Source: a virus (Duplodnaviria; Caudoviricetes). From it: a DNA stretch of 52,615 nt. Position numbers and translations under genes: made by a program. Within the stretch, counting starts at the first letter, position 1. Every line of letters begins with the position of its first letter. The DNA is taken from IMG/VR virus record IMGVR_UViG_3300025115_000016, positions 1-52,615 of that record, one strand, 5' to 3'. The notes beneath the pieces were generated by a model. It saw nothing but the letters and a program-made list of their open reading frames with translations. It was not told the origin of the DNA and searched no databases. Below are positions 30,633 through 51,747 of the stretch, one piece after another.

Positions 30633-33600
30633 TGCCGAGAGAAGCATATACCATAGGTAGATTTGACAGAGGCATCATCTCTGCGGTCGAAGGAGCAGAC
30701 CTTCCGAAGGAGTCTTCTCCGTGGAGCATCGATCAGGACTGCGAAGGCCCGCTTGGAGTCCTTCGCGGAAGGAACAACGACGAAGCGTTCGTCTCCCATG
30801 CCTCAAGGGGAAACAACGCTCAGGCATACGGATGGATCGTAAGGGAAGACGGAAAGCGCGACCTGATATACTACGACGCTGCAAACGGAGACGTAAAGTA
30901 CATCACCGACTTCCACGGCACAAAAGGATATGGCACCTCATTCAGTCCGGGAACAGGCAAGACAGTCTCGATTGAATCTGTCAACAGAGGCGTGCGCGTG
31001 GCCGTAGGAGACGCAGACGTAAAGTTTATCGGCTACATCGACCACGAGCAGTTCGGCGGGAGCGTTCCGAGCGGACTTCAATGCGTCGATGCAAAACTGT
31101 CCAACCAAACCTCTTTTCCCTACGTTCACAAGATGGTCGGACAAGACAGTCTATATGGATATGCGATTGAATGGCAGGGAAAGAAAGTCTTCAAAGTTAC
31201 TCTCTCAAGCGGAGCGTTCGTTCTCTCTGAACGATCCTTTGGCTCTCTCCAGGGGATTTGCGAAGACGGCACGTATATCTACGTCTACGATGCATCGATA
31301 GGAACATATGGCACTCTCTACAAACTGAATCAGTCTCTTGAGGTGGAAACAAGCTATCCTCTTTCCGGCTTTGGAAGCGTAGGAAATGAATTCGGCGGCA
31401 CTCAGGCTGGAATTGTCACCGACATCGAACTAAGCGCCGACAACTCCACTGTATGGTTTACGGGAGTGCCGAGCATCCCTATCACCGCGGCATCTTCGTG
31501 GAACGAGGCTGGTTCAAAATTCATCTTCTCTCAAGACATATCGTCTCTCAACGACGGTCAGTCAATAGTTCCCGTCGATAGAACGCCGTCGATGGCGCTG
31601 GATGTTTCAGAGGGAAGATTCAAGTCAACCGGAATAGTTCGTCCCGCAATGCGCGGCTTTGTCAAACTTACCACCGGAACCGAGATCGGAATATTCTGCT
31701 CCATCGAACAGAACGTGTACTACGACGGAACGGCTTCGGATGGAAAGCCGTATCTTGGCATATTGATTCTCAACACATCGTTTGTGGTTTCTTCCGGTTT
31801 CAACTCTGCGAATTCAAGGTTCATTGCCGTCGATGCTACAAACATGGTTCCGTCTCCCAGCGCTCCCGACAGTTGGTCTCCGATCAACGCCATCTACTGT
31901 CCGAATGGATCGGGGGAAGACGTTCTTGTCATCGCGGACAACGCAAACCTCTTGACTGAAGAGTGCGCTCTTGCAGACAATAAAAATCTTACGATTGGCG
32001 CAGCCGGCTCGGCGTTCGCCTGGGATGCGTCGGGATGGAAAACAATCTCGGTTGATGACGACAGCGAGGCTATTGACGACGAGCTCACAAATGCATCGAT
32101 CATGTTCAACAAGTACGACGGAGTCTCGGAGCTGAACGAATGCTACGTCTTTCCAGCCTATCAGTACCATGATGATCCCCTTACTGTCAACGTCGATCAG
32201 TCTCCGAGAATGTACAAACTATTCATCGGCGACGACGCATCTTTCTCGGCGGAACCTCATGTATATGTCAAGAGAAGCGATGCATGGATAACAGCGGAGA
32301 TCAACAACAATGAACCGGGAAGTCTTGGCGGGAAAGTTTACTTCTACAAATATGCGTTCATCTACGATGGATACCAATATTCTCCGCTTGAGAATTTCAA
32401 CGAACCGTTTAGGATCATCATTGGCAGCGGAAGTTACTCAACAAGGGTAACGGTTACGCTTAGAGACAATGTATTGAATGCGAGAATTACCGATGTTGCA
32501 ATATTCAGGGCCGAGGCGGCATCAAGCACATCTCTTCGTCCGACGACATCCTATCGTCTCATCAACACGATCAGTCTCAGGCAGAAGTGGGCGTTGAACA
32601 GCAGCGGCAAGTTCTCCGACTTCTATCAGGAGAGCGTCTACGATACGGGAAACTTCGGCGGTGCGTATGAAACAGAGTCCGGCATCGATGCGTCCAATCC
32701 GAACAACTTCATGCGCTATTCAATATCCGCTCAGGGGAACGGATACTTTTTTGTCGGTCAGTGTTTCAACGAAGAGTTCGACGACAACTCTCTTGCAAAC
32801 TTCCTGTTCCGTTCAAAGCAGAACGCTCCCGATACGTACGACTGGTCAACAGACTTCCTCGTGCTTCCGACCAAGCCCGTCGCACTTCACTTCTTCAGAG
32901 GGCTTCTGTACGCCTTTGACGTAGCCAGAATGTACGTGATCGATCCGAACAACTTCCAGATCATCCAGGTAGTCGAAGGGATGGGCGTTGAGGACCAGCG
33001 ATGCGTCGTGTCAAATGAAACGGCGATGTTCTTCGGAAACAGGAACAATGCGTACATGCACGACGGAAAGACTCCGACGATCATCTCCACGCCGGTGAAT
33101 GTCTCTTCCGATTCGACCATAGGTGGAACGGCAATCATTTCGTATAGGGCTACATTTGTAAATTCATACGAAATGTCCATTGCTATTCACTCAAAGAGAA
33201 ACCTTGTCTTGTTCTGTTTTTCGAAGACGGGAGCATCAACGTATATCCTTGGATTTCACTATCCGACCGGCTCATGGTACTTCTGGCAATTTGCCTCAAG
33301 TATCGATGGAACGATCCTGCCAAACGGTACCGGTAAAAAGATGGTTCTTGTCGATGGATATGGACAGGCATATCTTTCGACCGCCGGTGGCCTTCTCAGC
33401 ATCAACTCTGCTGCTACCTATAAAGCATGTACATGGTACAGCCACATCATCGACGGCGGGACTGTCAACGCCATCAAGAAGTTCTACATGATCATCCTGG
33501 ACGGTACGGCAGGAACGACCAAGCAGGTGGCATACAACGGAAGCACGACGTTCTCCACAGACTTCACTTCCGGAACATATCTTGATACGACGACCAAGAG

Positions 33601-33694
33601 GTCTTCGATGTGGATAAAACTTGTCCTTACCACGACGGATACTATTCGCGGGCTTACCGTACTATACAGAAAGATGATTGGAGAGCGGGCATGA
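30632..33694 (+). CDS. Tail nozzle / stabilisation (muzzle) protein
   Basis: About 1020 aa, beta-propeller-like; start MPREAYTIGRFDRGI; precedes the ejection proteins. Confidence 0.7.
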   Translation: MPREAYTIGRFDRGIISAVEGADLPKESSPWSIDQDCEGPLGVLRGRNNDEAFVSHASRGNNAQAYGWIVREDGKRDLIYYDAANGDVKYITDFHGTKGYGTSFSPGTGKTVSIESVNRGVRVAVGDADVKFIGYIDHEQFGGSVPSGLQCVDAKLSNQTSFPYVHKMVGQDSLYGYAIEWQGKKVFKVTLSSGAFVLSERSFGSLQGICEDGTYIYVYDASIGTYGTLYKLNQSLEVETSYPLSGFGSVGNEFGGTQAGIVTDIELSADNSTVWFTGVPSIPITAASSWNEAGSKFIFSQDISSLNDGQSIVPVDRTPSMALDVSEGRFKSTGIVRPAMRGFVKLTTGTEIGIFCSIEQNVYYDGTASDGKPYLGILILNTSFVVSSGFNSANSRFIAVDATNMVPSPSAPDSWSPINAIYCPNGSGEDVLVIADNANLLTEECALADNKNLTIGAAGSAFAWDASGWKTISVDDDSEAIDDELTNASIMFNKYDGVSELNECYVFPAYQYHDDPLTVNVDQSPRMYKLFIGDDASFSAEPHVYVKRSDAWITAEINNNEPGSLGGKVYFYKYAFIYDGYQYSPLENFNEPFRIIIGSGSYSTRVTVTLRDNVLNARITDVAIFRAEAASSTSLRPTTSYRLINTISLRQKWALNSSGKFSDFYQESVYDTGNFGGAYETESGIDASNPNNFMRYSISAQGNGYFFVGQCFNEEFDDNSLANFLFRSKQNAPDTYDWSTDFLVLPTKPVALHFFRGLLYAFDVARMYVIDPNNFQIIQVVEGMGVEDQRCVVSNETAMFFGNRNNAYMHDGKTPTIISTPVNVSSDSTIGGTAIISYRATFVNSYEMSIAIHSKRNLVLFCFSKTGASTYILGFHYPTGSWYFWQFASSIDGTILPNGTGKKMVLVDGYGQAYLSTAGGLLSINSAATYKACTWYSHIIDGGTVNAIKKFYMIILDGTAGTTKQVAYNGSTTFSTDFTSGTYLDTTTKRSSMWIKLVLTTTDTIRGLTVLYRKMIGERA

Positions 33695-33948: not shown

Positions 33949-34782
33949 ATGGATCCACTTACTATCGGACTGATCATGGGCGGGGGAAGCATCCTTGGCA
34001 AGATGTTCAGCAAGACCCCCGACTTCCAGCGTCTGGACAGAGCAAACTACATGCTCGGTTCAGACTACGAATACGATCCCGAAACCGACTTCGGACAATC
34101 TACTGCTGCCGACAACATGTCCAGATACGGCATGGGCGGCGCGTACAACTCCTACATCAAGGGAGAAACAGAAGCCCTTCGCAAGTCTGAGATGAACCGC
34201 ATACTCAAGATGGCTACCAGCATGGTCCCGGGAATGGCTTCCTTGAGGGGCGGAGTGTCTGCCCAGGGAGCAGGGGGAAGCGTCTCGAACGTCATTGCAA
34301 GACAGCAAAGAGAGCAGATGCAGGGACGCGCCCTTGACGCGGCAGACTCGATGTACGAGAAGTCTGTCGGAGGCATCAACATGGCTGAACTGAACATGCT
34401 CTCGGACAGCGAGAAGATGCGATATAGCTCTTCGCAAGACTACATGAAGGCGGTAGGAATGGGAACAGAGGCGAAGAACCAAGCCCTCAGATTCAACGTC
34501 GGCAACCGCTTTGAACGAGACCGGCTCAACATGTCGAATGCCCTTAGCATTGAACAGTTCAACCGCACCGGACAAATGAAGGCAGATGAAATGCGCTTCG
34601 GCAAATGGAACAGCATCTTCGACGACCTTGGAGGCATGGGAGGCACGATGCTCGGACATTGGGCGGGAAGCTATGATTTTAATGGAGAAAGCGACCTGGA
34701 CTATTTTAAGAAACCAATAACTATTGACCAAAGGAAAGAAGTTGATTGGAATAAATTTGGATTTGGTGGAAGGAAAAGGTGA
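33949..34782 (+). CDS. Ejection / pilot protein 1
   Basis: MDPLTIGLIMGGGSILGKMF N-terminus; Gly/Met/Gln-rich. Confidence 0.75.
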   Translation: MDPLTIGLIMGGGSILGKMFSKTPDFQRLDRANYMLGSDYEYDPETDFGQSTAADNMSRYGMGGAYNSYIKGETEALRKSEMNRILKMATSMVPGMASLRGGVSAQGAGGSVSNVIARQQREQMQGRALDAADSMYEKSVGGINMAELNMLSDSEKMRYSSSQDYMKAVGMGTEAKNQALRFNVGNRFERDRLNMSNALSIEQFNRTGQMKADEMRFGKWNSIFDDLGGMGGTMLGHWAGSYDFNGESDLDYFKKPITIDQRKEVDWNKFGFGGRKR

Positions 34783-35810
34783 CTAATATGGGAGCACTTT
34801 CAGAGAACTTCGCACGAGCATTCTCTCAGTCCTTTGCACAACGTAAGGAAGACGAGAAGCTCGAAGAGTCTGTTCGTATGCAGGAGATCAGAGAGAAGAA
34901 CGAACAGGACTATCGCAACGAGCAGATCAATCTATCCCTGCAACAGCTTCGAATGACCGAACAGAACAACATCCAGAACAACAACCGGATGATGCTCTCT
35001 GAGGCCAATCGTCAGTTTGTTACAACCGGGGAGAATGATCCCATTCTAAGATTTGGAGGACTCAAACCTCAAAACTCCGAGTATCTAAATGCTGCCGGAC
35101 CGCTGGCAAAACTGGATACAGGAAATGTCGCTGTCGATAGATCGGTATATGAGAAAATGGCTTTTGCGTATATCGAACAAATGAGGCAGGATTCCCGTGG
35201 AAGCGAAGTCTCAAAGATGCAGGAAAATCTCATGTCTCTTGAGAATGCGGCCAACAGCATGTCTCCGACATTCACATCGAAGGGTTCTCTTCCGACAATA
35301 GCGCTTCGCAAGTCGGTTACGAATCAGCAAAGACTTGTTATGGGCGATGCCGGCAGATGGGCTGCCAACTACGGCATTGCTGTCTATGACGATCCGAACC
35401 GTCCTATGACAATCGAGGGTACGAAGCAGGTGTCTCAAGAGGTTCTCGATCCTAACTATCTTGAGAATGTTGCAAAAATAATCGAGCGTATGCGTGGAGA
35501 GGGACTTCGCGCCAACAACCGTCAGCTTGGAATAAATGTGGACGAATACATCAGACCTGTCGAACGCTCATGGTTTGACAACGTGATGAAACACTACAAC
35601 ACGATCGATGCGGAAAAAGTCAGCCCTGCCGTTCGCGCGTTATTCAATCGTCTCCAAAGAACAAACATGATGGAGGCAAACGCACAGCAGATGCAGAGGA
35701 TGAAAGAAGTCTCGAGTATCCTATCAATGATGAAGGCTGCCGGAGATGTATCCAGCGAGTACAAAGAACCGGCTAAATCAATGGTCTCACCATATATCGG
35801 CGGACAATAA
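34779..35810 (+). CDS. Ejection protein 2
   Basis: Helical and Gln/Asn/Met-rich; lies between the pilot and the giant protein. Confidence 0.65.
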   Translation: MTNMGALSENFARAFSQSFAQRKEDEKLEESVRMQEIREKNEQDYRNEQINLSLQQLRMTEQNNIQNNNRMMLSEANRQFVTTGENDPILRFGGLKPQNSEYLNAAGPLAKLDTGNVAVDRSVYEKMAFAYIEQMRQDSRGSEVSKMQENLMSLENAANSMSPTFTSKGSLPTIALRKSVTNQQRLVMGDAGRWAANYGIAVYDDPNRPMTIEGTKQVSQEVLDPNYLENVAKIIERMRGEGLRANNRQLGINVDEYIRPVERSWFDNVMKHYNTIDAEKVSPAVRALFNRLQRTNMMEANAQQMQRMKEVSSILSMMKAAGDVSSEYKEPAKSMVSPYIGGQ

Positions 35811-35814: not shown

Positions 35815-38800
35815 ATGGCAAAACTTCAACTGCTATACGGGACGCAGGCCCCGCAAGAAACCTCAACGGAGCGTCCTTCATGGGACGCTTCGTCGTTTAT
35901 CGGACAGTTCATGGCCGGATACGTGGAAGGACTCACGACATTCGACGTATTGGACAACTACGACATCGTAAAGAACAACGCCGACACCGAGGCAGAATAC
36001 ATCGCCAGAAGTCTCGGAAGCGTTCTTGGGTTCATCGGATTCCTGCCGTTTCCCGGAACAGGCACGTTCACACGACTCGGCTTTTCCACTGCCGCCAAGG
36101 CAATGAAGCTCGTCGGACAGGCAGACAAAGCAAAGAGCCTTGCCGCAGAAGCCAGGGCTGTCAAGATGACCATGACCTCTATCCCGATGATTACCGGAAG
36201 AGTGATGAGCGGAGGAGTAATGAGGATGCTTGAGTCCGGAGCCGCCAAGTCTGCGCTTCAGTTCGGAGAGCAGGCGATAGGAAGAAGTCTTTCTGCCGGA
36301 GCGAAAGCAAGAATATCCTCTTATACCGAAACGGGTTTGTTTATGGGTTTTGCCTCAGCCGCAGCTGCTCGCCCAATGAATCCTATGGACATCTTCAGCG
36401 AAGGATGGGACGAGCGATGGGAAGCAGCGAAGTACGGCATGGCATACGGCGTAGGACAGCAGGCGATCGCATCGTTCTTCTCTCCGAAACTCATGGAGAA
36501 ACTTGGAGCGAAGAACTTCAAGGAGCTCATGCAGAAGGAGCCGGACAAAGCCGAATTCATGCTCAAGTCTCTTCGCGGAGTTTCTACCGGCCTTGTGATG
36601 GGCGGATATGCGGCAGCCGAAGGGTTCCCAAACGAACTTGTGCTGTACGAAACTCTTGTCAACGGTGTCTTCGGATACAGAGAGCTTCCCTGGTACAACA
36701 AGCAGGCGATGAAACTGATGAACAAGCACCTTCGTGAAGAGAAGGTTGCGGACTATCTGCTCATGCAGAAGACTCCCGAGAAGTACCTTGAGTCTGTCGG
36801 AGAGACCGATCTTCCGCCCGAGGTCATCAACTCGTTCTCAATAGCCGCCACCGCTCACTTTGGGAACACCGTCAAAACCGCATCTGCCTACATCGAAGCG
36901 ATGAAAAAGACCGAAGCCGCACGCAGAGGCGTGGACGTGGAATCTCTCGGAGACGAATTCATATCTGAAATGATACAGTCCGGAGACATCACCAAGGCGA
37001 AGGCATGGCAATCCCTTCTTGAGTACGATCAGATCATGAAGATGGAGACCGACAAGGCGGTCAACACATTCGAAGAGGTTCACAAGAGAAAGCCCAGCGA
37101 AGAGGAGATGCACGACATCTCGGATGCTGCCAAAGACAATGCGGACGCCATCAGCGTCGATCTCTGGTACAACAACGACGACGCGATCAGGATCATCAAG
37201 GACGTCGCCAAGAGGGTGCACTACGAACAGGAGATGACTCAGCAGACTCCCGATCAGCTTCTCAAGGTGGCTTCCTCGATGAGAGAGGCGGGCATCTCGA
37301 TGCAGGCGGCCGAATTCGTCACGACGCTCAGCGACGTCCTCGGCAAGGAACATCGCGGCTTTGAGACCTTGCGCACGATCAACGAGATCATTCGTACCAA
37401 CAAGCGCGACGGACAAAAGAACTACATTCCCGTCAGGGATCAACTTACCGGAAAGTTCGGCATCACGTTGACCAAAGAGCAGGACAATGCGTTCAGGCAT
37501 CTGTGGGCCATGTACTCCAACAGCAAGACCAGAAAGATGCTCAAGGTCAACCTGTCCGACTACGACGTCTTCAGGCCGACAGAGCACCTTGCAGACGGCA
37601 CGTTCAAGGCGGAGATCGACAACGTGACTCCGATCGAAAAGATGACCGGTCTCGAAGCAATGTATCTGAAGACAGCGGTGGATAAAAAGACGGACGTTCC
37701 GATCCACTCTTCGAAGGTCAACGCTTCCCGGCTGATGGTGGAGTCCTTCAAGAAGAACTGGTGGTATTTCTCCGGCAAGAAGGACAATCACCACATGGTC
37801 TTCTTCGACATGACAGAGGCCAAATTTGAGCCAGGAGACTTCAATTTAGCCAAGGAGGCCTTAGCCATAGATGCGGTCTTAAAACCGCTCCAAGACCCCT
37901 CTAAAGGCGATTATGTGCCATTTTTAGAGCAGTATGCGAAGGACAAAGCCCTTTTTGTGGCTGAAGCCCTGAGAGACGTCCCTGAAGGCAAGGCAATAGG
38001 CGAAAAGATAGCCGCAGAGAAGGCATACGACGCCCTGTACAGCTTCAACGCTGTCCAGTGGAAGAAGTTCAACCATGCGGAGACCCTTGCTGAACTGTTT
38101 GCAGACAGGGATGCGTTCTCGATTACCGATGTGACGAAGTTCAACAAGCGTACTCAGTTGATGTTCGACGTCGGCATTCCGATGGATCCGAGCGTCGTCG
38201 GAAGGGAGAAGCTCAGCGCCAGGGTGGCAGAGTGGACCCCGGAGTCTCTCGGTCTGTTCAAGACTGAGTTCGGTCGAATGTTCGGAGGAAAGAACCCCTT
38301 GCAGTACGACGGCGTTGCGTGGGTGCGAAGAGAGGCCGCCAAGGCATTCGGCTCGTACTCCGGAAACGAAGAGGGGGGATTTCACAAGATCGCTGCCGTT
38401 CACTCCGACGACCTTGGAGGACTCTTAGGCAAGCAAGGCTTCCACGTAATGACTGCGAAGGAAGAGTCGATGCTCGATAAGTCCGGCATCAGCGACGACA
38501 TCGTGTTCTTTGAGAGCGCCACAAAACTCAAAGGGAAGCGTCCTGTAACCAAACTGACCTTATCCAAAGAAGGCATCACTCACGACGCTACTGAAGTGAT
38601 CAACCCGGAAGACCCGCTCGGCAAGAGGACAGGCGGCTCGTTCGAGATTCCCGTAGAGTCGATACGTCTGAACCTGTCGGCAGCGGAAGATCCGACGATC
38701 AAGCCTGCTCACATCGCCAAACCGCTCTTGAACCACTTTGAAGAGTCTCCCGAACTCTCAAGGCTCATCATGGAGAAGTACGTGCTTCCGGGATTTGAAG

Positions 38801-41800
38801 GGGATGCGTTGCCGGAGAACTCTCCTGCTGAAGCGATTGCAAAGACCAACACCGGAGTCTTCAGGGCGGGCAAAGATCAGCCAATGACCAAAGAGCTCGG
38901 CGTTGACATCGACAAGGTTCCGCTGAAGGACCTGTTTGAAGTGATGAAGGACATGCCGAACGACGCACGTCTGAACACTCTTGCAAGGAAGTTGATGCGC
39001 TATCAGTTTGAACGTGGAGACGAGATCGAGTCGGATGAGATGGGCGAGTGGAAGCAGATCGAAGACCTCATTTCAGACAGGAGTAACATTGCCAAGAAGA
39101 TGTCGATGATGGGCGAACTCGATCCTGCGTTTTTGGCTCAGGCAGACATCCATCGGTATATGGAGCAAGCCCTGTACAAGTATGCTTTGGACAGAGTGCA
39201 TCGTCCGAAGGCGCCGAACTCATTCAAGGCAAAGCTCGGCTATCTGTCTCCGATTGAACTGATGGAATACGAGTCTTCAGGCAAGCAGTTTAAGCCCGGA
39301 GACATTCTCCTTGAGGGCGGTCTGAAGAAGACGCCCATTGAACTTCCTGCTGAATTCAGAGGGCTGTTCGATGGAAAAGAAAAAACGACGCTTGGAGAGA
39401 TGTGGGAGAGGTTGCAGGCAGAGAGCAATCAGTCTCTTCAGGACTTCTTCGACAATGCGGTGGCGGTGCGCGTTCCTTTGTCCGATCTGTCCGGAGCAAG
39501 GGCGATGAAGATGGCGGGATTTACCAAGGGAAAGGGATTCAGAACCTACGTTCATCCGTACGACATGCAGTACATGGACGGAGCGGACCTTGACGGAGAT
39601 TCGATGTTCATGTACTTCGGTCTTGAGCGTCCCCTGGTCGATCATCTCAAGAAGACCGATGTGAAGCACCGGTTCACTCATTGGAGCGACAAGTCGGGAA
39701 GAGACCTCTACGATGCGTACAGCGTGCCGCCTGAACTCGTGGACTCTCCCTTGCTGGAGAAGCGCTTCACGATGGACAAAGCGGGCAACGAGGCGCTGCT
39801 GGCCGGCGATCAGGCTCAGTACGACTTCCTGAAGAACCCTGCATCGATGTTTTCTCCGTATGCAAGGAACCTCGTGAACAGGATCGCCACTATGGGCAAA
39901 GGCAACCTCGGGCCCGGACTCGTCGCTGCTCTTCGCGGAAAGCAGTTGTACAAGTACGCCAACGGAAAGCCGATCGTCACTCAGATCGAGGACGTAGGAG
40001 AGGTCACTCTCGTGCCGAAGGGACTCAGAGCGCAGAGGATGACTCAGGCTCAGACGGTGAACCTTTCGGCAGACGCAGCGGACGGACATGCAATGGCGGA
40101 CGTAAACCACATCAGGGCGGCCAACGTGCTGTCTCCGTTCAGAGTATTCGTTGACGGGAAAGAGCTCTCTCCCAAAGAGTACGTGCCGCTGTTCTCCAAG
40201 TCGAAGACCTTCTACATCAAAGGCAGAGAGGTCAAGTCTCCCTATCTGAACAGGCTTCCTTTGATCAAGACGCTGGCCGAGTTCGACGGCGCTCTTCGCA
40301 ACAGGGACTTCGAAGGCAACCTGAGAAACCTTCAGGACATCATGGCGAAGATCAGGAACGTCTCCACGAGGGTAGAGGACATCAACTTCGACAACACATG
40401 GTACAATACGTCGAAACTCCTTGCCACGCTGGATTACAGACCGCATCCCGCATCGTTCATGAATTACCTGTCGAGAAAGGTCGTCTTTGAGTCGCTGGAT
40501 ACGTTCTTCAAGTCGTTCAAGCGCGTACTGGGAGCGGAGAAAGAGCGCGCGGTCGGAGAATTCATCATGTCGCTGATGGGACGCAGGGGGCTGTCGTTCA
40601 CGAAGTCGAAGATAACAGATACCAATGAGTGGAAGATCCTCGAAAGAGAACTCGACGTATACCACAAGAACGATCTCAAGAGCGCCAAGGGATACACCGG
40701 CTCGAAGGCATATCTGGACGACTTTATCAACAGCGAAGACTTCCGCTTGAGCAAGTTGTGGGAGATCTCGAAGAACTTTCCTTCTGCGGACAGGAAGTCC
40801 ACGACGGACAGGACTCCGTTTTTGATGAAGGAGCTCGCCGAGCTCTCGCTGTACGCAGACAACGATCTGGTGAAGTACAACATGGAGAAGGTCGTCGCTC
40901 ACTATACGAATGAAGGCGGCAAGCCGGGATGGCTGACATTCGACCGATTCAACAACTTCGATCAGAATGTCAAAGACCTCGAAGCCACGATGGAAGCCAA
41001 GGGCATCAACAAGTACGAAGTGTCCTATCTGCCAAGAACGGAAGGAGAGCAGGTCATTGAAGCCAGATCGCTGTTTGTGAAGGACCTTCACGACGTCGCA
41101 TCGCTGAAGATGATGAACGAGGTGCTCTCGAAGTACGTTGCGGACAGCAATCCGAAGGATGTCAGGGAATTCCTTGACAAAGACCTTCATCCGTTTCTCC
41201 GGACGATCTCCACATACAGGAGCCAGCTCATCGAGTCTCAGCAGGACGTCTTCTCTTCCTACGGTCCGAACAGGGCGGGCAAGAGCAAGGCTTATCAGGC
41301 AAAACTCAAGGAGATTAGAGCGTACAGAGCCAGACTCTCCGACGACAAACGCCCGGTCTTCGACGCTCAGTTTCTCTCTTCGTTCCAGCCCGATCCGATC
41401 GGAGACGAGGCAACAGAGAGATATAACGCTCTGTATTCAAAGGAGTATGCCAGGGCGAATGCGAAGACGCTCGCAATGTACGCGGGCAAGAAATTGCCGA
41501 TGGAGAAACTCAAGGAGATCGTTTCAAAGAACACTCTGAACAGGTGGCTGTATGCAAGCAAGTTCGCTCAGACTCCGATGTTCGCAGGCGTCGTTTCGGA
41601 CGGCATGCTCAGGAAGTACTACGACGGATTCTCTGAGGTCTCGAAGATCATCGAGACTCCGCTCGACCAACTGAACATAAGAACGGTGAAGGACGACCTG
41701 AACATCGATACCGGGCGCATGCTTCCTGCGTATCTTGCAGCCGATCCTGAGGTGCAGATCATGGAGACCAAGCAGCCGACCAAAACGAGGGTGAGTAAGA

Positions 41801-44800
41801 TGGCCGGCCCCTTGAAGAAACTCGTTGCAGATGCATCCGAAGGTCTCGACAAGAAAGGACGCCTGAAGAACCTTCAGGAGGACGCGGAGTACTCTCAGAT
41901 CACCAAAGACCTGACAGACATCTTCCTTCGTCACAAGGACGTTGCAGACCAGATCGCGTGGATATTCCCGACCATCGTTGCCGAGCGCACCGGAGGAAAG
42001 GTGCACCGAACGATGGACCTTGCCACAAAGAGGGATTGGCAGGACTTCATCAGAATGTTCAAGACCGCGGACGGACGGATGAAGCAGGATGTCGGAGAGC
42101 CGATCGCAGTGAAGAATTCGTGGTTCTTCAAGTTCTTCTCCCGCGTGGCGAAGGAGAACAGGATGAAGTCCGTTGATAAGGACGGCAATCTGAACATCTT
42201 TACCCTTGAGTATCCGGCCCACGTAAACACTCCCGACGGGAAGGTCGATCTGAACGTGCGCAGGATCGTCGGAGCGCTTGAGATAGCAGGCATCCACGGA
42301 GAGGCTCTTACTGCGACCAAGAACGCCATCGACGGAATGCTCAAGGCAACATTGGCGGACAGGTTCGACCTCTACGAGAAACTCAACAAGATCGACGGCC
42401 TTGGACTGAAGATGTTTGAAGCGGTTGTCGGCGTCATCGAAGGACCGCTTGGCGATCCGCAGGTCACTCCGAAGGGATGGGAGCTGTACCAGAGGAACGG
42501 CAGAGAGGCAATGCAGACGATCGCCTCGATGAAGAAGAAGTATGCCAATGGCGTACTGGTTCAGGACGCCAAAGGGAAGACCATAAAGATGAGCATCGAC
42601 AACATCGTGATGGAGATGAAGAACAAAGTGGGTGAGTATCTCGACGACATCTACCGGAGACTTGAAGCGATGGAAGACGACGCCGTGCTCTCTGTGTACT
42701 ATACCGGAGAGACATACGGAAAAGTGAAGTTTCCGATGCTCAACGTCGACGCTCTCTCGGACAAGGCGATGGGCATCGAGGCAGAGAAAGGTCTTCTGAT
42801 GACTCCATCGAAGAAGTTCAGTTCAATTGTAGCGGTCAACGACATGCTGAAGTCTCACAAGATAAAGTACTATGTGACGAAGACTCAGGATGTGATCTTT
42901 GCCGACGAGATGAGCAAGGCGAAGAACAGGGCGATCGAGGAAGCGCTCTCCAAGGGAAACGAGGACATCAGGCAGGAAGAGAAGTTCTTCCACGAACTCA
43001 GCGAACCGATGAGGCACAAGTTCATCGACAAGATGACCTTGGATGGTTACGTGATGGGATTCCCCTTCACGGCAGACCTTCAGCCCTTAAAGCAGATGTG
43101 GTTTCCACACATGCACCTTTCGGAGAAGGAGGTCACCGCGCAATTGCAGGAGCGCGTCGCCAAACTCGTGCCGAAGTTGCCGGAGTCTCAGGTGAAGGAG
43201 CTCTCCCTTGAGACGATCAGGATCCTTCTTGGCTACAAGGACCAACTGTACTCCCAGAACGAAGGACAGAACATCTTCAATCGCATTAACGGAAGAGCCG
43301 ACGTGTTGACTACCTTGCGCTATGAGAACAAGCATCTCAAGGGAAGAGACCATTCGTTCTTCGGTCCGCTGGACGGATGGGACAGAAGTCCCCTGGCTCT
43401 GCACAGCGCGTACGAGAAGATTGCCAAGGAGAACGCAGACATGTTCTTCGCCGTCGTTGCAAAGAACATACTCCGCAGGCAGACAGAGAAGCAGGTTTAT
43501 GGAGACAACACTCTCCACATTGCAAGGTTCACCGAACGCTACTTCAGGCAGGCTCTCGGATATGCCGACACTATTCCGCAGGAGTGGCTCGCTCCCGGCG
43601 AAGATGCGTATAAATACGGGATGAAGAACAACATGTGGAAGTTTCACTCCGATCAGTACTGGATGAACAAGATTCAAGAGGTCGGCAACACGTACTTTGG
43701 AGGCAAGATCACCGGAGACTTCAAATCGATCGACAACATCGCCAACGCCCTTGAGTTCGACGATCCGAAGACCAAGCAGGCGTGGATCAACGAAGGCAAG
43801 AGAGTCCTTGCCGAAAGGAAGCTCTCGTGGTTCTCGCAGATGGAGGCGAAGTATTCGCTGCTGTCCTTGCTAACCTCCACAAAGACCTTCACGACCAACG
43901 TGGCGTCGGCAGGCATCATGACGCTCATCAACACCTCCACGGATGACTTCAGGAGAGCGTTCTCGTTAAAGGCGATGCAGGACGAGGCGGGAAGCCACAA
44001 CATCAAGTCTTCGGGAGACATCGACAAGATGGTTGCGGCAGGAGGCGGTCTGGAAGGAATGTTCCAGCAGGAGATCAACATGCACGGAGCCTTGGGATAC
44101 GTCGGTAAAGAGACGGTGGGAAGGCTTCTGACTGAGATCAAGCGCAAGGGCGTCGATGCAGACGTCAAGGGAATACTCGTCAAGCAGGGAGTCTTCAGCC
44201 GGCTCGTGGATGCCGGCGCGTACATGATGAAGAAGTCGGAGATGATCGCCAGAAAGCACTCGTATCTTGCTCACTACATGAACGCCAGAAGGAGTTTCAG
44301 GATGCAGGGCTTCGAGCTCGAGTACGACGATCCGTGGATTACCAAGATAGCCAGAGACGGAGTTGCTGCAAGCCAGTACCTGTACTCCAATGCAAACCGT
44401 CCCGCGTTCATGGGTTCCCTGATAGGGAAAGTGTTCCATCGGTTCCAACTATTTGCCTACAACTCGGTCGAGTTCCGTCTGAATGCGATGGAAAGAGCCA
44501 GACAGATAGGAGTTCTTCCCGGAAGCGACGACTACCGGAAGTTCGAGAGGATGATGGCTGCGGACATGTTCATGTTCGGCATGGCGTCCGTCCTTCCGTT
44601 CTCGATATTCAACACCATGTTGCCTCCGCCATACAACTATCTGACGGACTATACTCAGTTCTTCTTCGGAGGAAGCATTGAAGACAGGCAGAACGCGTTC
44701 TATACGGGCTTGCCGTATCCCCTGAACATCACTCAGCCGTTGACTCCGGCAAGCGCCAGGATCTTCGTCTCGCTTCTTGGGTATGCCTACGACAAGGATG

Positions 44801-45087
44801 CGGAGAAACTCACCAAGGGCGTCGTATCGCTTGCTCCGGGACATCGTTTGATACGGGACGTCTATCGTTCGTACGATCAAATATCCAAAGGAAGGAATCC
44901 CGCGATCATCATCGACAACATGACGGGCATTCCTTTGGTGAACTCGGGAAGCGTCATCAAGAAGCTCAACAAGGAGGGCGGGATCGATCTCTACCTGAAG
45001 CGGTATGAACACGGGCCTTATTTAGAAGACATGAAAAAAAACGAGGAAGAGATCGACGAATTTCTCCGTCAATATTCTTCCCCGTAA
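35815..45087 (+). CDS. Giant ejection protein containing a single-chain double-psi-beta-barrel RNA polymerase (putative virion RNAP, about 3090 aa)
   Basis: YDGVAW (38305), K-x12-K in HKIAAVHSDDLGGLLGKQGF, FESATK, then RVP (39469) and GADLDGD (39580-39600). Likely start ATG 35815. Confidence 0.8.
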   Translation: MAKLQLLYGTQAPQETSTERPSWDASSFIGQFMAGYVEGLTTFDVLDNYDIVKNNADTEAEYIARSLGSVLGFIGFLPFPGTGTFTRLGFSTAAKAMKLVGQADKAKSLAAEARAVKMTMTSIPMITGRVMSGGVMRMLESGAAKSALQFGEQAIGRSLSAGAKARISSYTETGLFMGFASAAAARPMNPMDIFSEGWDERWEAAKYGMAYGVGQQAIASFFSPKLMEKLGAKNFKELMQKEPDKAEFMLKSLRGVSTGLVMGGYAAAEGFPNELVLYETLVNGVFGYRELPWYNKQAMKLMNKHLREEKVADYLLMQKTPEKYLESVGETDLPPEVINSFSIAATAHFGNTVKTASAYIEAMKKTEAARRGVDVESLGDEFISEMIQSGDITKAKAWQSLLEYDQIMKMETDKAVNTFEEVHKRKPSEEEMHDISDAAKDNADAISVDLWYNNDDAIRIIKDVAKRVHYEQEMTQQTPDQLLKVASSMREAGISMQAAEFVTTLSDVLGKEHRGFETLRTINEIIRTNKRDGQKNYIPVRDQLTGKFGITLTKEQDNAFRHLWAMYSNSKTRKMLKVNLSDYDVFRPTEHLADGTFKAEIDNVTPIEKMTGLEAMYLKTAVDKKTDVPIHSSKVNASRLMVESFKKNWWYFSGKKDNHHMVFFDMTEAKFEPGDFNLAKEALAIDAVLKPLQDPSKGDYVPFLEQYAKDKALFVAEALRDVPEGKAIGEKIAAEKAYDALYSFNAVQWKKFNHAETLAELFADRDAFSITDVTKFNKRTQLMFDVGIPMDPSVVGREKLSARVAEWTPESLGLFKTEFGRMFGGKNPLQYDGVAWVRREAAKAFGSYSGNEEGGFHKIAAVHSDDLGGLLGKQGFHVMTAKEESMLDKSGISDDIVFFESATKLKGKRPVTKLTLSKEGITHDATEVINPEDPLGKRTGGSFEIPVESIRLNLSAAEDPTIKPAHIAKPLLNHFEESPELSRLIMEKYVLPGFEGDALPENSPAEAIAKTNTGVFRAGKDQPMTKELGVDIDKVPLKDLFEVMKDMPNDARLNTLARKLMRYQFERGDEIESDEMGEWKQIEDLISDRSNIAKKMSMMGELDPAFLAQADIHRYMEQALYKYALDRVHRPKAPNSFKAKLGYLSPIELMEYESSGKQFKPGDILLEGGLKKTPIELPAEFRGLFDGKEKTTLGEMWERLQAESNQSLQDFFDNAVAVRVPLSDLSGARAMKMAGFTKGKGFRTYVHPYDMQYMDGADLDGDSMFMYFGLERPLVDHLKKTDVKHRFTHWSDKSGRDLYDAYSVPPELVDSPLLEKRFTMDKAGNEALLAGDQAQYDFLKNPASMFSPYARNLVNRIATMGKGNLGPGLVAALRGKQLYKYANGKPIVTQIEDVGEVTLVPKGLRAQRMTQAQTVNLSADAADGHAMADVNHIRAANVLSPFRVFVDGKELSPKEYVPLFSKSKTFYIKGREVKSPYLNRLPLIKTLAEFDGALRNRDFEGNLRNLQDIMAKIRNVSTRVEDINFDNTWYNTSKLLATLDYRPHPASFMNYLSRKVVFESLDTFFKSFKRVLGAEKERAVGEFIMSLMGRRGLSFTKSKITDTNEWKILERELDVYHKNDLKSAKGYTGSKAYLDDFINSEDFRLSKLWEISKNFPSADRKSTTDRTPFLMKELAELSLYADNDLVKYNMEKVVAHYTNEGGKPGWLTFDRFNNFDQNVKDLEATMEAKGINKYEVSYLPRTEGEQVIEARSLFVKDLHDVASLKMMNEVLSKYVADSNPKDVREFLDKDLHPFLRTISTYRSQLIESQQDVFSSYGPNRAGKSKAYQAKLKEIRAYRARLSDDKRPVFDAQFLSSFQPDPIGDEATERYNALYSKEYARANAKTLAMYAGKKLPMEKLKEIVSKNTLNRWLYASKFAQTPMFAGVVSDGMLRKYYDGFSEVSKIIETPLDQLNIRTVKDDLNIDTGRMLPAYLAADPEVQIMETKQPTKTRVSKMAGPLKKLVADASEGLDKKGRLKNLQEDAEYSQITKDLTDIFLRHKDVADQIAWIFPTIVAERTGGKVHRTMDLATKRDWQDFIRMFKTADGRMKQDVGEPIAVKNSWFFKFFSRVAKENRMKSVDKDGNLNIFTLEYPAHVNTPDGKVDLNVRRIVGALEIAGIHGEALTATKNAIDGMLKATLADRFDLYEKLNKIDGLGLKMFEAVVGVIEGPLGDPQVTPKGWELYQRNGREAMQTIASMKKKYANGVLVQDAKGKTIKMSIDNIVMEMKNKVGEYLDDIYRRLEAMEDDAVLSVYYTGETYGKVKFPMLNVDALSDKAMGIEAEKGLLMTPSKKFSSIVAVNDMLKSHKIKYYVTKTQDVIFADEMSKAKNRAIEEALSKGNEDIRQEEKFFHELSEPMRHKFIDKMTLDGYVMGFPFTADLQPLKQMWFPHMHLSEKEVTAQLQERVAKLVPKLPESQVKELSLETIRILLGYKDQLYSQNEGQNIFNRINGRADVLTTLRYENKHLKGRDHSFFGPLDGWDRSPLALHSAYEKIAKENADMFFAVVAKNILRRQTEKQVYGDNTLHIARFTERYFRQALGYADTIPQEWLAPGEDAYKYGMKNNMWKFHSDQYWMNKIQEVGNTYFGGKITGDFKSIDNIANALEFDDPKTKQAWINEGKRVLAERKLSWFSQMEAKYSLLSLLTSTKTFTTNVASAGIMTLINTSTDDFRRAFSLKAMQDEAGSHNIKSSGDIDKMVAAGGGLEGMFQQEINMHGALGYVGKETVGRLLTEIKRKGVDADVKGILVKQGVFSRLVDAGAYMMKKSEMIARKHSYLAHYMNARRSFRMQGFELEYDDPWITKIARDGVAASQYLYSNANRPAFMGSLIGKVFHRFQLFAYNSVEFRLNAMERARQIGVLPGSDDYRKFERMMAADMFMFGMASVLPFSIFNTMLPPPYNYLTDYTQFFFGGSIEDRQNAFYTGLPYPLNITQPLTPASARIFVSLLGYAYDKDAEKLTKGVVSLAPGHRLIRDVYRSYDQISKGRNPAIIIDNMTGIPLVNSGSVIKKLNKEGGIDLYLKRYEHGPYLEDMKKNEEEIDEFLRQYSSP

Positions 45088-45134
45088 GGTTTCACTTTTA
45101 ATGCTCGCTGATTTTACTCTTTCAAGTTTTCACG

Positions 45135-45461
45135 TCACTCTCCTAATTTGGTTAGTATATCTTTGTGGAGAAGGTCGAGTCTTTCCCTGAACTTCTCCTT
45201 TGTAGATTTAAACTCTGGATTTAAAAATATCATGTCGTTGTATTTCCTCGATACGTTTATCATGTCGCCGTTCTGGATTTCCAATGTAAGAATGTCTCTT
45301 CCTTTGACCTCTGTTACAAGGATAAAGAAGTCCATTCCCTTCACATGAAAGACCTCGCCGACGAGCGATTTGTACTGCTTGATGAGTTCCCTGTCAAGAT
45401 TCTTCCTTAGAGCCTTGATCTGGTCCTCGATCTCTTTTGATTTCGTAGACTCCATAGGCAA
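45135..45461 (-). CDS. Hypothetical protein
   Basis: Last ORF of the leftward arm. Confidence 0.65.
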   Translation of the reverse strand: MPMESTKSKEIEDQIKALRKNLDRELIKQYKSLVGEVFHVKGMDFFILVTEVKGRDILTLEIQNGDMINVSRKYNDMIFLNPEFKSTKEKFRERLDLLHKDILTKLGE

Positions 45462-45639
45462 ATATCATTCCGGAGGCAAACAGTGTCAGGAGTGGAAGTG
45501 CGATCTGTTCATGCAAGAACCTTGCAAGGTCTCCATACGGAATTCCCCCGAATATGAGGTTGCTGATGACCGATGTGGACACTGAGAACAGGAACATTCC
45601 GACTCCAAGAGCGATGACTCCAAATGTTTTATGACTCAT
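45394..45639 (-). CDS. Two-TM membrane protein
   Basis: AGGAG RBS; two hydrophobic segments. Confidence 0.65.
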   Translation of the reverse strand: MSHKTFGVIALGVGMFLFSVSTSVISNLIFGGIPYGDLARFLHEQIALPLLTLFASGMIFAYGVYEIKRDRGPDQGSKEES

Positions 45640-45649
45640 TTTTCTCCTT

Positions 45650-45701
45650 AAAAATTAAGCCGGGGAAGCGGCAAGATGCTCGGTATGCATCTTTCCCCGG
45701 C
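45650..45701 (-). terminator. Long hairpin terminator after the ParB-domain gene
   Basis: Minus strand GCCGGGGAAAGATGC-ATACCGA-GCATCTT(GCCGC)TTCCCCGGC-TTAATTTTT. Confidence 0.7.
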
Positions 45702-45718
45702 GCGTTGGAGGTTGCCAA

Positions 45719-47224
45719 CTATTTCTTTTTGTTTCTCTTTGCTGCGGCTTTCGCGTCTGACTGACGTTTGATCCTTTCGGCTTCCTTCTCCTGCTGCTCT
45801 TTCTTCTTGGCTTCGACCATCGTCTTGCGGACACTTGCGCTGATTGCATCGACGTTTACCGACACGAGTTTGGCAAGTTGCGTATGGTCTGATGCGATCT
45901 GCCGGGACAACAGCAGTTTCAGGAGCGCGTTCAGCGGCTCATCTTTCGAGAAGTGCTTCAGCACGACTTCCTGCGCCTTTCCAAATCCGACCTTTGAGTA
46001 CTCTTCTTTGGACAGAATCCGACGAAGGTATCCGCTGATGAACGAATAGGGAACGATTTCGTTGACGATGTACGTGAGCATTCCTCTGTCGAAGTTCTTC
46101 ACAAGGTCTGCTTCCATGACCTTCTGTCCGAACTGACGAACAGTCTCGTTGGTCACTTTGTTTTCGAATATCTTCGCCGATCGTTCCGCTTTATCTTTCT
46201 CCTTCTGTTTGGGCGTGCGGTTGTCTGCTTTCTTCTGAGCGTTCGGATTCACCTTGATGTACTGTACGAGCATTCCCGCTTTGGGGCCGTCGATCATAAC
46301 TCCCTCTTTGATGGACTTCTCGTCGTCTTCATCGTCTGCCGCCCTCCACTGCTGAACTCCGAGAATGTCTCCGCTGTATACATTGGAAACAGACAATTGC
46401 TGCACCTCTTTGATGACTCGCAGCGTCTTTTTGATCTCCTTCAGTTTGTCTTCGGAGACCGCTACTCGTATTCCAAGCGTATTGGACTTCTCATCCAGAT
46501 ATTTGTCGATGGCTTTGTCAAGTGCGACCTGTCCAAGTTTGTCGTTGACAACCTTGAATGCATCTTCCGGGCTGATTGTCCCTTCGAAGAATGCATCGCT
46601 CATTGCGTTGCGAACCCTTGATTCCAATTGGTCCTCTGTCCACGAAACGAACACAGTCGGCTTTCCGTCCACCGTTTCTTTTGTCACACAAAGTTTCCAA
46701 AGTTGCTTCTGCATCGTCTTGGGTATGCGTGCAAAGATGAAGACCATTCTTTCGCTCAAGCCAACGGCGGTTCCTTGAATGGCTTCGACGATCTCTTCCG
46801 TCAGATTGCTCAGGTTCATCCTTCGTACGACGTAGTTTGTCGACTTGTTCAGTTTCTTCGCAACGGCTCCGGTGTCCATCGTTTTGAGCAATTCGCTGAT
46901 GACCTGATATTCCTCGTACATGTTCATGTTCTTGCGATGGATGTTGTCCACCAGCAGCAGCGCATTTGACGTCTGTTCGTCGATGCCCTCCTGAACGATG
47001 ACCGGAACCTTTGCCAGCTTCAGTTGTTTTGCGGCTTCAAAGCGTCGTTCTCCCGAGATGATGATGTATTTGTCGGACGCTCCGTTGGTCTTGACGAGCA
47101 GCGGATTCTTAATTCCAAATTCCTTAATTGAGCTGACGAGTTCTGCATCGGGTGTTCTGCTCTGCGGATTCAGTGGGTTTCTCTCCAATTGAGAGAGTTG
47201 TACTTCGATGAGTTGTTGACTCAT
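45719..47224 (-). CDS. ParB/Spo0J-domain protein with HTH and long C-terminal extension
   Basis: Start MSQQLIE; NP.NP..R, LVSSIKEFGIKNPLLV, IISGERRFEA, DNIHRKNM, VAKKLNKS..YV.RR. Confidence 0.85.
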   Translation of the reverse strand: MSQQLIEVQLSQLERNPLNPQSRTPDAELVSSIKEFGIKNPLLVKTNGASDKYIIISGERRFEAAKQLKLAKVPVIVQEGIDEQTSNALLLVDNIHRKNMNMYEEYQVISELLKTMDTGAVAKKLNKSTNYVVRRMNLSNLTEEIVEAIQGTAVGLSERMVFIFARIPKTMQKQLWKLCVTKETVDGKPTVFVSWTEDQLESRVRNAMSDAFFEGTISPEDAFKVVNDKLGQVALDKAIDKYLDEKSNTLGIRVAVSEDKLKEIKKTLRVIKEVQQLSVSNVYSGDILGVQQWRAADDEDDEKSIKEGVMIDGPKAGMLVQYIKVNPNAQKKADNRTPKQKEKDKAERSAKIFENKVTNETVRQFGQKVMEADLVKNFDRGMLTYIVNEIVPYSFISGYLRRILSKEEYSKVGFGKAQEVVLKHFSKDEPLNALLKLLLSRQIASDHTQLAKLVSVNVDAISASVRKTMVEAKKKEQQEKEAERIKRQSDAKAAAKRNKKK

Positions 47225-47282
47225 GATGAGTGCTCCTTTTAGATGAATAAAAACACCCGCCCTTTCGAGCGGGTATATGTGA

Positions 47283-47498
47283 TTACCTTCTTCGTGAACA
47301 GTAGGTACTGTAGAATTTCTCTCCAAGTTCTCTTGCCTGCTTTATGTTTCGTGCGTAGATGGTTTTGACGAGTATCATTGTGGCGTGGTATCGTTCCTCT
47401 TTGTACCCTGTGTACATCGTGCAGTTGTGTATTCTCCACTGTCGCGCGGTGTTCGGATACGGAGGAAAGTAGATTTCGAGTGTATATTCCTTTTTCAT
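47283..47498 (-). CDS. Hypothetical protein
   Basis: ATGA-coupled ORF. Confidence 0.55.
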   Translation of the reverse strand: MKKEYTLEIYFPPYPNTARQWRIHNCTMYTGYKEERYHATMILVKTIYARNIKQARELGEKFYSTYCSRRR

Positions 47499-48817: not shown

Positions 48818-48996
48818 CGTTAAAGCATCTGCCTTGCTGAATGAATTTTCCGTATAAGATGTCATTGAAATATTTCCTCATTGATTGGTATGTTGTGGAA
48901 GAATCGTCGACAAGCGAATGATCGATCAGTCTTCCGTTTTCTGTTAGTGTAAGGTGGTGACGCGATATAATCAGCGGATTCAAGACGAATATTACT

Positions 48997-49278
48997 TCAA
49001 TCTCTTTGTTCGTCGACAGGATCTTCCGGATACTCGTCTGGGTTAAAGGTGTCCTCGGGGAATTCGCAGTCGCACCCGCATTTCCCGCATTTTGAGCAGG
49101 AGAGGTACTGTTTTGCTTCTTCAATTTCTCTGTCATATTGTTCCTGAGTTATATAAAGACAATAATCCCCACAACGGGAGCATAGACCGAGATCTTCGTC
49201 ATCGCAGTCCACGCCCCCATGGGGATCCATGTGTGGCTTTGCTCCTGCGCCACAGCAGTTACTTACGTTTCTTGACAT
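48997..49278 (-). CDS. Cys-rich zinc-finger-like protein
   Basis: SNCCGA...CSRCGDYC...CSKCGKCGCDC. Confidence 0.65.
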   Translation of the reverse strand: MSRNVSNCCGAGAKPHMDPHGGVDCDDEDLGLCSRCGDYCLYITQEQYDREIEEAKQYLSCSKCGKCGCDCEFPEDTFNPDEYPEDPVDEQRD

Positions 49279-49508
49279 TGTGCTTCCTTTTGTTTTTCCC
49301 ACCATGCCTCATTCATTGCTTTGCTGCTTTGGTAAAAATTCACCTTCAGTTTGTTGAATTGAGAATATGTCAATGATTTACTTCCATAGGGAGAGCCATC
49401 TATCCAACTAAAATAAAACAGTTGAACACTATGTTTTAAGAATTCAATTCGGCATTGATTTTCAATGTTTCCATTCTCATCCATTATATGTGCAAATGGC
49501 ATTGTCAT
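49263..49508 (-). CDS. Hypothetical protein
   Basis: AT-rich ORF with AAGGA RBS. Confidence 0.55.
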   Translation of the reverse strand: MTMPFAHIMDENGNIENQCRIEFLKHSVQLFYFSWIDGSPYGSKSLTYSQFNKLKVNFYQSSKAMNEAWWEKQKEAQCQET

Positions 49509-49527
49509 AATTATGTTCCTTTTGTGA

Positions 49528-51683: not shown

Positions 51684-51747
51684 TCCACTCTCTCGTATAT
51701 TGTAATTGTGCCTGCTATCTGTCCATAGAGGATCCTTATGCCCAGAC

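Follow-up and report, generated by a model that had tools for sequence, protein, structure and literature searches.

The stretch of DNA considered here comprises 52,615 nucleotides (nt) of the IMG/VR virus record IMGVR_UViG_3300025115_000016 (Duplodnaviria; Caudoviricetes) and is referred to below, at its full length, as the window. The question that it raises is the function of a single giant protein of 3090 amino acids (aa), which is encoded by the last gene of the rightward structural arm (gene position 35815–45087, plus strand, open frame). This gene accounts for 17.7% of the genome and its product (P0001) has a mass of approximately 345 kDa. An alternative upstream ATG at position 35746 would extend the open reading frame (ORF) by 23 residues (3113 aa); the start at 35815 was preferred because M1 is invariant in an alignment with 10 full-length homologs. 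The initial annotation, made from the sequence without database searches, had described the protein as an ejection protein containing a putative virion-packaged two-barrel RNA polymerase (RNAP). The analysis presented below allows us to consider it likely that this is a single-chain multi-domain virion protein with a central two-barrel, cell-type RNAP, which would be ejected into the host and would transcribe the leftward arm of the genome. Within this explanation, we infer how the core is folded, that it is catalytically active, that the protein is packaged and injected, and which genes it transcribes.

The motifs quoted in the initial annotation were all found in the translated 3090-aa ORF, in the order given there. 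The beta-like part contains YDGVAW (aa 831–836, nt 38305–38322), HKIAAVHSDDLGGLLGKQGF (aa 857–876, nt 38383–38442) and ESATK (aa 900–904, nt 38512–38526), and the beta'-like part contains RVP (aa 1219–1221, nt 39469–39477) and GADLDGD (aa 1256–1262, nt 39580–39600). DLDGD is the sole DxDxD sequence in the entire protein, and R1219 stands 39 residues ahead of D1258. R1219-V-P1221 together with D1258-L-D1260-G-D1262 matches the pattern '[RK]xPx{20,100}DxDxD', which was used as a filter for two-barrel RNAPs in a published survey (supplementary file 8, PMC10770324). The putative RNAP core, delimited by its match to the gp66 family of the phage phi14:2 and by its invariant columns, spans aa ~745–1420 (38047–40074, plus strand). 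It includes, on the same strand, the FNKRTQ motif (38140–38157), the beta-like barrel motif block with D832-G833, K858, K873 and K904 (38305–38526) and the beta'-like barrel motif block R1219-V-P1221...G1256-A-D1258-L-D1260-G-D1262 (39469–39600), the three aspartates of which are the predicted Mg-binding triad.

To what extent these motifs are a property of a family can be judged from three sets of homologs. A word-indexed search gave 12 proteins, including that of the window, with lengths of ~1,860–3,300 aa. An exhaustive profile search gave 581 cluster representatives (50% identity) of metagenomic origin at E<=1e-3 and 491 at E<=1e-10; the 150 representatives listed are mostly 2,600–3,700 aa long, the remainder being shorter fragments. 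In IMG/VR, 383 stretches of the family were confirmed, of which 80 loci, on contigs of at most 56 kb, were kept for analysis. Conservation was counted in an alignment of the window protein and 156 homologs to the core profile (hmmalign), with the sequences covering a given column as the denominator; within this set, identity to the window protein is 16–60%. R1219, P1221, D1258, D1260 and D1262 were each retained in 145/145 sequences, K873 and K904 in 151/151, K858 in 150/151, D832 in 149/150 and R779 in 144/145. Among 11 full-length homologs (20–58% identity), K858, K873, K904, R1219, V1220, P1221, G1256, A1257, D1258, D1260 and D1262 are invariant, and an alignment of 40 core sequences gave the same picture. 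The motif layout proposed earlier is thus invariant across the family in all three alignments.

A DxDxD sequence was also present at the site in 49/49 full-length ORFs of the IMG/VR loci, with GEDNDGD in locus L006. These loci were obtained partly with the pattern [GD]GAD[LK]D[GS]D, and conservation of the aspartates among them is partly by construction. The word-indexed and exhaustive sets were not collected by pattern, and the profile used in the exhaustive search does contain the motif. Given the conservation throughout the family, the quoted motifs are more than a chance occurrence. Strict invariance of three aspartates and three lysines at 16–60% identity would be typical of a catalytic site, and the conserved lysines of the beta-like block are putative active-site lysines.

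The closest characterized relative of the core was found in phi14:2 (NC_021806). The gp66 protein of this crAss-like phage has been shown experimentally to be a two-barrel RNAP that depends on DNA, is packaged in the virion and carries out early-gene transcription (10.1101/2020.03.07.982082). A profile of 40 core sequences searched against the single gp66 sequence gave one match, in which RVP...GADLDGD lies on YRIP...SDFDID (residues 1315–1372); against an alignment of 86 gp66 sequences, the match lengthened to 212 columns (E 0.0019). Profile–profile comparison with hhalign, using 155 sequences of the giant-protein family (effective number of sequences, Neff, 7.3) and 120 sequences of the gp66 family, gave 446 colinear columns with a score of 42.6 and an E-value of 0.001. 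An empirical null was obtained with reversed gp66 (20.8) and with 25 block-shuffles (15.3–25.2), and none of these 26 controls exceeded 25.2.

The residues paired in the 446-column alignment include those on which the motif blocks are built. On the beta-like side, R779 is paired with R894 (FNKR with K893/R894), D832 with D962, K858 with K1012, K873 with K1027 and K904 with K1065; on the beta'-like side, R1219 is paired with R1322, P1221 with P1324 and the aspartate triad with D1361/D1363/D1365 of gp66 (SDFDID). Each of the gp66 partner residues is at least 95% conserved among the gp66 family, and the spacing from the arginine to the first aspartate is 39 in both families (R1322 to D1361 in gp66). 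In addition, the family profile was aligned with the beta' subunit of E. coli RNAP, and the best match was the catalytic barrel (429–470, with NADFDGD), scoring 26.7 against at most 22.8 in 12 nulls. The likeness to the phi14:2 virion RNAP claimed in the initial annotation is supported as probable remote homology by profile–profile alignment with an empirical null, and the claimed likeness to cellular RNAPs agrees with the placement of the RVP..GADLDGD block on the beta' catalytic barrel. As judged from these comparisons, the relation of the core to the gp66 family is well supported, and the core probably belongs to the two-barrel RNAP superfamily. That it is a homolog of two-barrel polymerases appears highly probable to us.

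A number of results weigh against this assignment. For the whole 3090-aa protein, no relevant match was found in Pfam (E<=1), in PHROGs or in the PDB using phmmer; hmmsearch of the PDB with the core profile, the beta'-like block and the beta-like block also returned nothing relevant. The hhalign probability of the comparison with gp66 is low, namely 14–22% (21.6% for the 446-column alignment), and the family profile gave no match to E. coli beta, with a score of 16.2 that lies within the null. A sensitivity control showed that the gp66-family profile likewise misses the catalytic barrel of E. coli beta'; since gp66 is a structurally proven two-barrel RNAP, single-sequence targets constitute a weak test.

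These same results would be expected if the protein were a giant structural or ejection ('polyvalent') protein whose motifs form a metal- or nucleic-acid-binding site of some other fold, RNAP-like by convergence. The absence of a Pfam, PHROGs or PDB sequence match to any polymerase and the low hhalign probabilities agree with such an explanation, as does the fact that the strongest family-level match of the whole protein is that of its C-terminus to a PLxRFG tail family. However, convergence would have to account for a 446-column alignment that stands far above all 26 nulls and pairs residues invariant in both families, for an identical arginine-to-aspartate spacing, for the beta' catalytic barrel as top match, and for the strict invariance of the six presumed active-site residues, and we regard it as unlikely.

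The comparison of the putative polymerase with gp66 revealed both common and distinguishing features. Like gp66, the giant protein is a single chain, the two barrel signatures are ordered identically in both, and in each case the core is flanked by large regions whose fold is unknown. The giant gene is the last one in the structural arm, and in phi14:2 g066 lies close to the end of the block of structural genes. The giant protein is longer than gp66 (3090 aa versus 2180 aa), its genome is smaller (52.5 kb versus 100 kb), it ends, unlike gp66, in a PLxRFG-like tail, and it has no similarity to the gp66 partners gp65 and gp67. Searches based on hidden Markov models detected no similarity between gp66 and the giant protein. 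The fourth position of the aspartate motif also differs. The crAss-like RNAPs have DFD[IV]D, with I or V at this position in all crAss-like phages (10.1101/2020.03.07.982082), unlike the giant protein, which has G. Among 144 members of the giant-protein family, G predominates at residue 1261 (95 members), followed by I (33), S (10) and A (6), so that the crAss-type DxDID, as in gp66, occurs in 33/144. Of the DxDGD match to phi14:2 proposed in the initial annotation, the aspartate triad was retained and the glycine was not. The cellular-type DxDGD and the crAss-type DxDID coexist within this single protein family.

The remainder of the giant protein was characterized using a conservation map built from 115 full-length homologs. 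The map contains four blocks, namely an N-terminal region, the core (peak at aa 1201–1260), a helical middle and a C-terminal domain. The conserved N-terminal region (aa 1–300, 35815–36714, plus strand; map block aa ~60–300) is rich in Gly, Ala and Ser, and in 37 sequences its invariant residues are G35, G68, G72, S122, A180, S181, G208, Y278, F286 and G287. Its profile has no relative in the PDB or NCBIfam, and we infer a role in membrane contact or ejection. The helical middle (aa ~1500–2400) is poorly conserved. The C-terminal domain (aa ~2640–3040, 43732–44934, plus strand) is the best conserved part of the whole protein and contains its only strongly hydrophobic segment (aa 2913–2937, 19-residue window).

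The C-terminal domain appears distantly related to the NCBIfam family 'tail-700 / PLxRFG' (NF032893). The match covers aa 2802–2930 and positions 306–426 of the 681-position profile, with E 1.6e-6 and 26.9 bits, which is far below the curated cut-off of 100; NF032893 was matched by 34/36 C-termini of the family at E<=0.01. The C-terminus can accordingly be regarded as a distant relative of NF032893 and not as a member by the curated rule. The C-terminal profile had no relative in the PDB. The Pfam family LPD38 (PF18857), suggested for this domain by an ESM-Atlas lead of 0.95, was rejected, as 0/36 C-termini matched it at E<=1. When the N-terminal, middle and C-terminal blocks were compared with phi14:2 gp65–gp69 using hhalign, the scores did not exceed 25.4 and lay in the null range, which also speaks against a close parallel with phi14:2; the polymerase core would be the only part shared with the crAss-like phages.

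The block structure of the map provides an argument for another possibility, according to which the protein is indeed a virion-packaged RNAP, made as a polyprotein and cleaved after translation into ejection, polymerase and tail pieces: conservation falls between the blocks, at aa 300–620 and aa 1500–2400. No protease domain was found in the giant protein or in the 14 homologs scanned, and a length of ~2,700–3,400 aa is broadly kept among the representatives listed, which makes cleavage improbable in comparison with a polymerase that acts as one chain.

Inserted accessory domains were found in 5 of the 14 scanned full-length homologs (P0012, P0078, P0103, P0140 and P0144). They include a 2OG-Fe(II) oxygenase, a cpYpsA SLOG domain, an SF1 helicase, NADAR, DUF7831 and DUF1848. 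The precomputed Pfam listing for gp66 homologs contains the same inserted families with the exception of DUF1848, so that occasional insertion of NADAR, DUF7831, cpYpsA, 2OG-Fe(II) oxygenase and SF1 helicase domains is common to both families. Variable add-on domains of this kind would fit a protein introduced into the host cell, by analogy with the 'polyvalent proteins', which are described as effectors delivered with the DNA; the RNAP modules listed for them are of the N4 type only (PMC5512222). In two phage lineages whose structural genes are otherwise unrelated, the same optional domains are inserted in giant RNAP proteins, which suggests that both lineages draw on a common pool of injected modules with accessory or counter-defence roles.

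The position of the gene in the genome bears on the role of the putative polymerase. The last 131 nt of the window (52485–52615) repeat positions 1–131 with 1 mismatch, so that the assembly closes into a circle of 52,484 bp, and an independent freshwater-metagenome contig continues beyond the window end. The sequence was located in a single DNA sequencing run, labelled freshwater metagenome, from which the window may derive, and in no RNA run. The window is therefore a complete circular podophage genome of ~52.5 kb. Its 30 largest ORFs were compared with PHROGs and Pfam, and the genes are grouped in two arms. The rightward structural arm (9401–45087, plus strand) ends with the giant gene. The leftward arm, on the minus strand, runs from 9382 down across the circular junction to 45135. 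Its first part (45135–52484) encodes a ParB-like nuclease, a phrog_8203 protein, a Holliday-junction resolvase, a nucleoside deoxyribosyltransferase-like protein and the helicase half of a primase-helicase, and the second part (1–9382) encodes the primase half of the latter, a Sak4-like annealing protein and numerous small ORFs. The primase-like (2–1177) and DnaB-like helicase (51748–52614) minus-strand ORFs join over the junction into 638 codons from stop to stop. The genes of the leftward arm are presumed to be the early and replication genes. The arrangement in which the giant gene is followed by the convergent primase-helicase gene was kept in 61–67 of the 80 related loci.

A two-barrel polymerase could also serve in replication, either in primer-making or PolD-like DNA synthesis that replaces the missing DNA polymerase, or on RNA or single-stranded DNA templates in the manner of QDE-1. 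In agreement with the initial annotation, according to which the genome lacks a DNA polymerase, the scans of the 30 largest ORFs revealed neither a DNA polymerase family nor a second RNA polymerase family. The archaeal replicase PolD is a two-barrel enzyme (PMC7281927), and QDE-1 has both DNA- and RNA-dependent activity (PMC9508822). A weak lead in the same direction is the nearest named ESM-Atlas cluster, the viral RNA-dependent RNA polymerase (RdRP) family PF05183 (0.85), which only 1/40 members matched (E 0.0084); this lead also counts, weakly, among the arguments for a polymerase core as such. A replicative role is nevertheless improbable in our estimation. The gene ends the late structural arm, on the strand opposite to the replication genes, and this position is kept in the related loci; a primase-helicase is already present in the genome; the closest characterized relative, gp66, is a virion DNA-dependent RNAP; and a replication enzyme would have no obvious need for the ~2,400 residues outside the core, with their conserved extensions at the N and C termini.

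For a virion-packaged transcribing enzyme, the following mechanism appears most likely, modelled on gp66, on the crAss001 cargo proteins (PMC10172136) and, by analogy only, on N4 gp50 (PMC13434306). The segment of aa ~745–1420 would be a two-barrel cell-type RNAP, distantly and specifically related to gp66. The catalytic Mg2+ would be held by D1258, D1260 and D1262, with R1219 and P1221 in the beta'-like barrel and D832, K858, K873 and K904 in the facing beta-like barrel. The N-terminal region and the PLxRFG-like C-terminal domain may serve capsid packaging and passage or anchoring at the cell envelope, a role that can be likened to that of the two terminal domains of the N4 virion RNAP, an unrelated protein. 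The protein would be made late and packed into the capsid; after adsorption, it would be ejected through the short tail, ahead of the DNA or together with it, and anchored or refolded at the inner membrane. It could then transcribe the genes that come first in the leftward (minus-strand) arm, in which the replication and recombination genes are located, so that the host polymerase would not be needed. The support for this mechanism is positional: the gene is the last in the structural arm, and its arrangement with the convergent primase-helicase gene is kept.

The phage N4 provides a functional model for the giant protein by analogy. Its gp50 is packed in the capsid, ejected and transcribes the early genes (PMC13434306), and the virion RNAPs of N4 and other Schitoviridae are, like the giant protein, chains of ~3,000–3,500 aa in a podophage (PMC13434306, PMC5512222). 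The N4 polymerase differs in being a T7-type single-subunit enzyme of unrelated fold, and no T7-type RNAP was detected on the whole giant protein, either as a Pfam family (E<=1) or as a PDB sequence match. N4 also has two defined ejection partners, gp51 and gp52, and none is recognisable in the window. A further parallel is gp96 of the phage P23-45, described as a two-barrel RNAP in a giant virion protein threading the tail channel (PMC10770324). The two proteins are likened here by description only. The RNAP of gp96 is fused to a siphovirus tail tape measure, and the fusion partner in the giant protein is of the podophage internal type. For the C-terminal domain, the nearest counterpart is a 495-kDa protein of the Lastavirus podophages of Klebsiella (62 kb), annotated as 'tail-700/PLxRFG' (PMC9505181); this protein and the giant protein each take up ~18–19% of a podophage genome of 50–60 kb and have related C-terminal domains, with the reservation that the match of the giant protein to the PLxRFG profile is partial and far below the cut-off.

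The ejection and transcription steps also have results to their disadvantage. The initial annotation had placed the giant gene as the third of three ejection-type genes. It does close the structural arm; the two genes upstream of it (33949–35810, plus strand), which encode proteins of 277 aa (Gly/Met-rich) and 343 aa (Gln/Asn/Met-rich), have no family match, including no match to an ejection-protein family in PHROGs, Pfam or NCBIfam. These two proteins are barely conserved (277 aa in 3/80 and 343 aa in 0/80 loci, tblastn E<=1e-5), and the 'ejection' label for them follows from their composition alone. With respect to transcription, no k-mer of 9–12 nt was common to more than 2 of 14 intergenic regions. 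A Bacteroidota-type promoter pattern gave 1 match versus 0.45 expected. Sigma-70 and terminator scans of 8500–9500 and 44900–45800 showed no clear excess over shuffles, with 3 promoter-like sites versus 1.1 +/- 1.1 in shuffled sequence in the first region and 2 versus 1.0 in the second.

To evaluate the position of the phage among known phages, its proteins were compared with 50,697 deposited phage records. TerL is at most ~25–27% identical to that of any deposited phage, and the portal protein, the major capsid protein (MCP), the polymerase core and the C-terminus gave no tblastn match. BLASTP against the TerL, portal and MCP of phi14:2 revealed no significant similarity. Because TerL is distant, the portal and MCP are unmatched and the comparison with phi14:2 is not significant, the phage is not a crassvirus by its structural genes. 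Both the distinct lineage and the half-size genome suggested in the initial annotation agree with these data, the genome of 52,484 bp standing against 100,418 bp in phi14:2; the relatives were found on contigs of 44–56 kb, and the genome of crAss001 is ~103 kb (PMC10172136).

Virion-packaged two-barrel RNAPs have been described in crAss-like phages, in jumbo phages and in P23-45-like Thermus phages (10.1101/2020.03.07.982082, PMC10770324). No description of the giant-protein family was found in the literature, where gp66 was covered by its preprint version. In the supplements of PMC10770324, the strings GADLDGD, ADLDGD and GADKDSD occur in 0 files, the search having covered the files other than the alignments of its 23 RNAP families. 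It can be proposed from the sequence comparisons that the giant proteins constitute their own large family of virion-type two-barrel RNAPs with a PLxRFG-like tail, in a podophage lineage of its own whose genomes are of ordinary size. The case points to one further family of virion-type two-barrel RNAPs, which sequence searches of Pfam, PHROGs and the PDB do not reveal. If this assignment is true, host-independent early transcription by an injected cell-type polymerase would be more widespread than annotation suggests, and the family would bridge the DxDGD active site, as in cellular enzymes and QDE-1, and DxDID, the unusual site of the crAss phages. The packing, short-tail threading and reactivation of a ~345-kDa enzyme could also be studied with it as a compact model in one chain, and one of the largest 'hypothetical proteins' of environmental viromes could be named.

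A wider proposal can be put forward tentatively, with somewhat less than even confidence: that these phages form a large, probably order-level lineage of podophages with genomes of 44–56 kb, in which one chain of ~3,000 residues, made up of an N-terminal domain for membrane entry, a two-barrel RNAP and a PLxRFG tail, replaces the whole ejection and early-transcription apparatus and in which the RNAP is a sister family to gp66, with either DxDGD or DxDID kept in its members. If this proposal holds, the phage clade proposed as the source of the eukaryotic RNA interference polymerases would be much broader and older than Crassvirales, and virion two-barrel RNAPs would occur commonly among environmental phages with genomes of ordinary size.

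With regard to the host, two distant relatives were binned with metagenome-assembled genomes, one assigned to Bacteroidota and one to Rhodothermales. Shine-Dalgarno-like 4-mers were found within 20 nt upstream of 29/43 genes in the window, compared with 17% of random positions. An upstream frequency of this order would be unusual for a Bacteroidota host, and it fits poorly with the bins of the two distant relatives. The giant gene itself has no Shine-Dalgarno-like 4-mer, and its upstream sequence is CGGCGGACAATAATCTT.

The other genes of the rightward arm (plus strand) include TerL (10137–11705; phrog_38, E 2e-81), a P22-like portal protein (12537–14783; PF16510, E 1e-32), an SU10-like MCP (16314–17699; PF17236, E 3e-8) and, as a weak match, an SU10-adaptor-like protein (19129–19833). 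Several proteins encoded by this arm have no family, among them a 1043-aa protein (30563–33694), for which tblastn matches were found in 23/80 loci, upstream of the giant gene. A protein of 2009 aa (21008–27037), also with no family match, contains many internal direct repeats (families D1–D12, units of ~100–200 nt), and the GC content falls to ~0.44–0.46 there; the protein probably serves as a tail fibre or in receptor binding.

In the replication arm, a 456-aa protein (47495–48865, minus strand) was matched end to end by phrog_8203, a family of unknown function (E 9e-88); no Pfam family was assigned to the protein, and the single PDB sequence match obtained for it is insignificant (E 0.47). 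It would be a conserved phage protein of this arm. Rfam and tRNA scans of the window found none. The start points of both arms should lie within the divergent inter-arm region 8906–9400, which consists of ~215 nt without an ORF followed by a doubtful minus-strand ORF of 86 codons (9122–9382); the latter reads more like structured or regulatory DNA, and there was no Rfam match at this place. Finally, an RNaseH-like 3'-5' exonuclease (11747–12304, plus strand; PF13482; phrog_403, 'DNA polymerase exonuclease subunit') is encoded between TerL and the portal gene, an odd location for a replication-type gene in a genome with no recognisable DNA polymerase, and a homolog of this exonuclease is also present in a related locus (L003).

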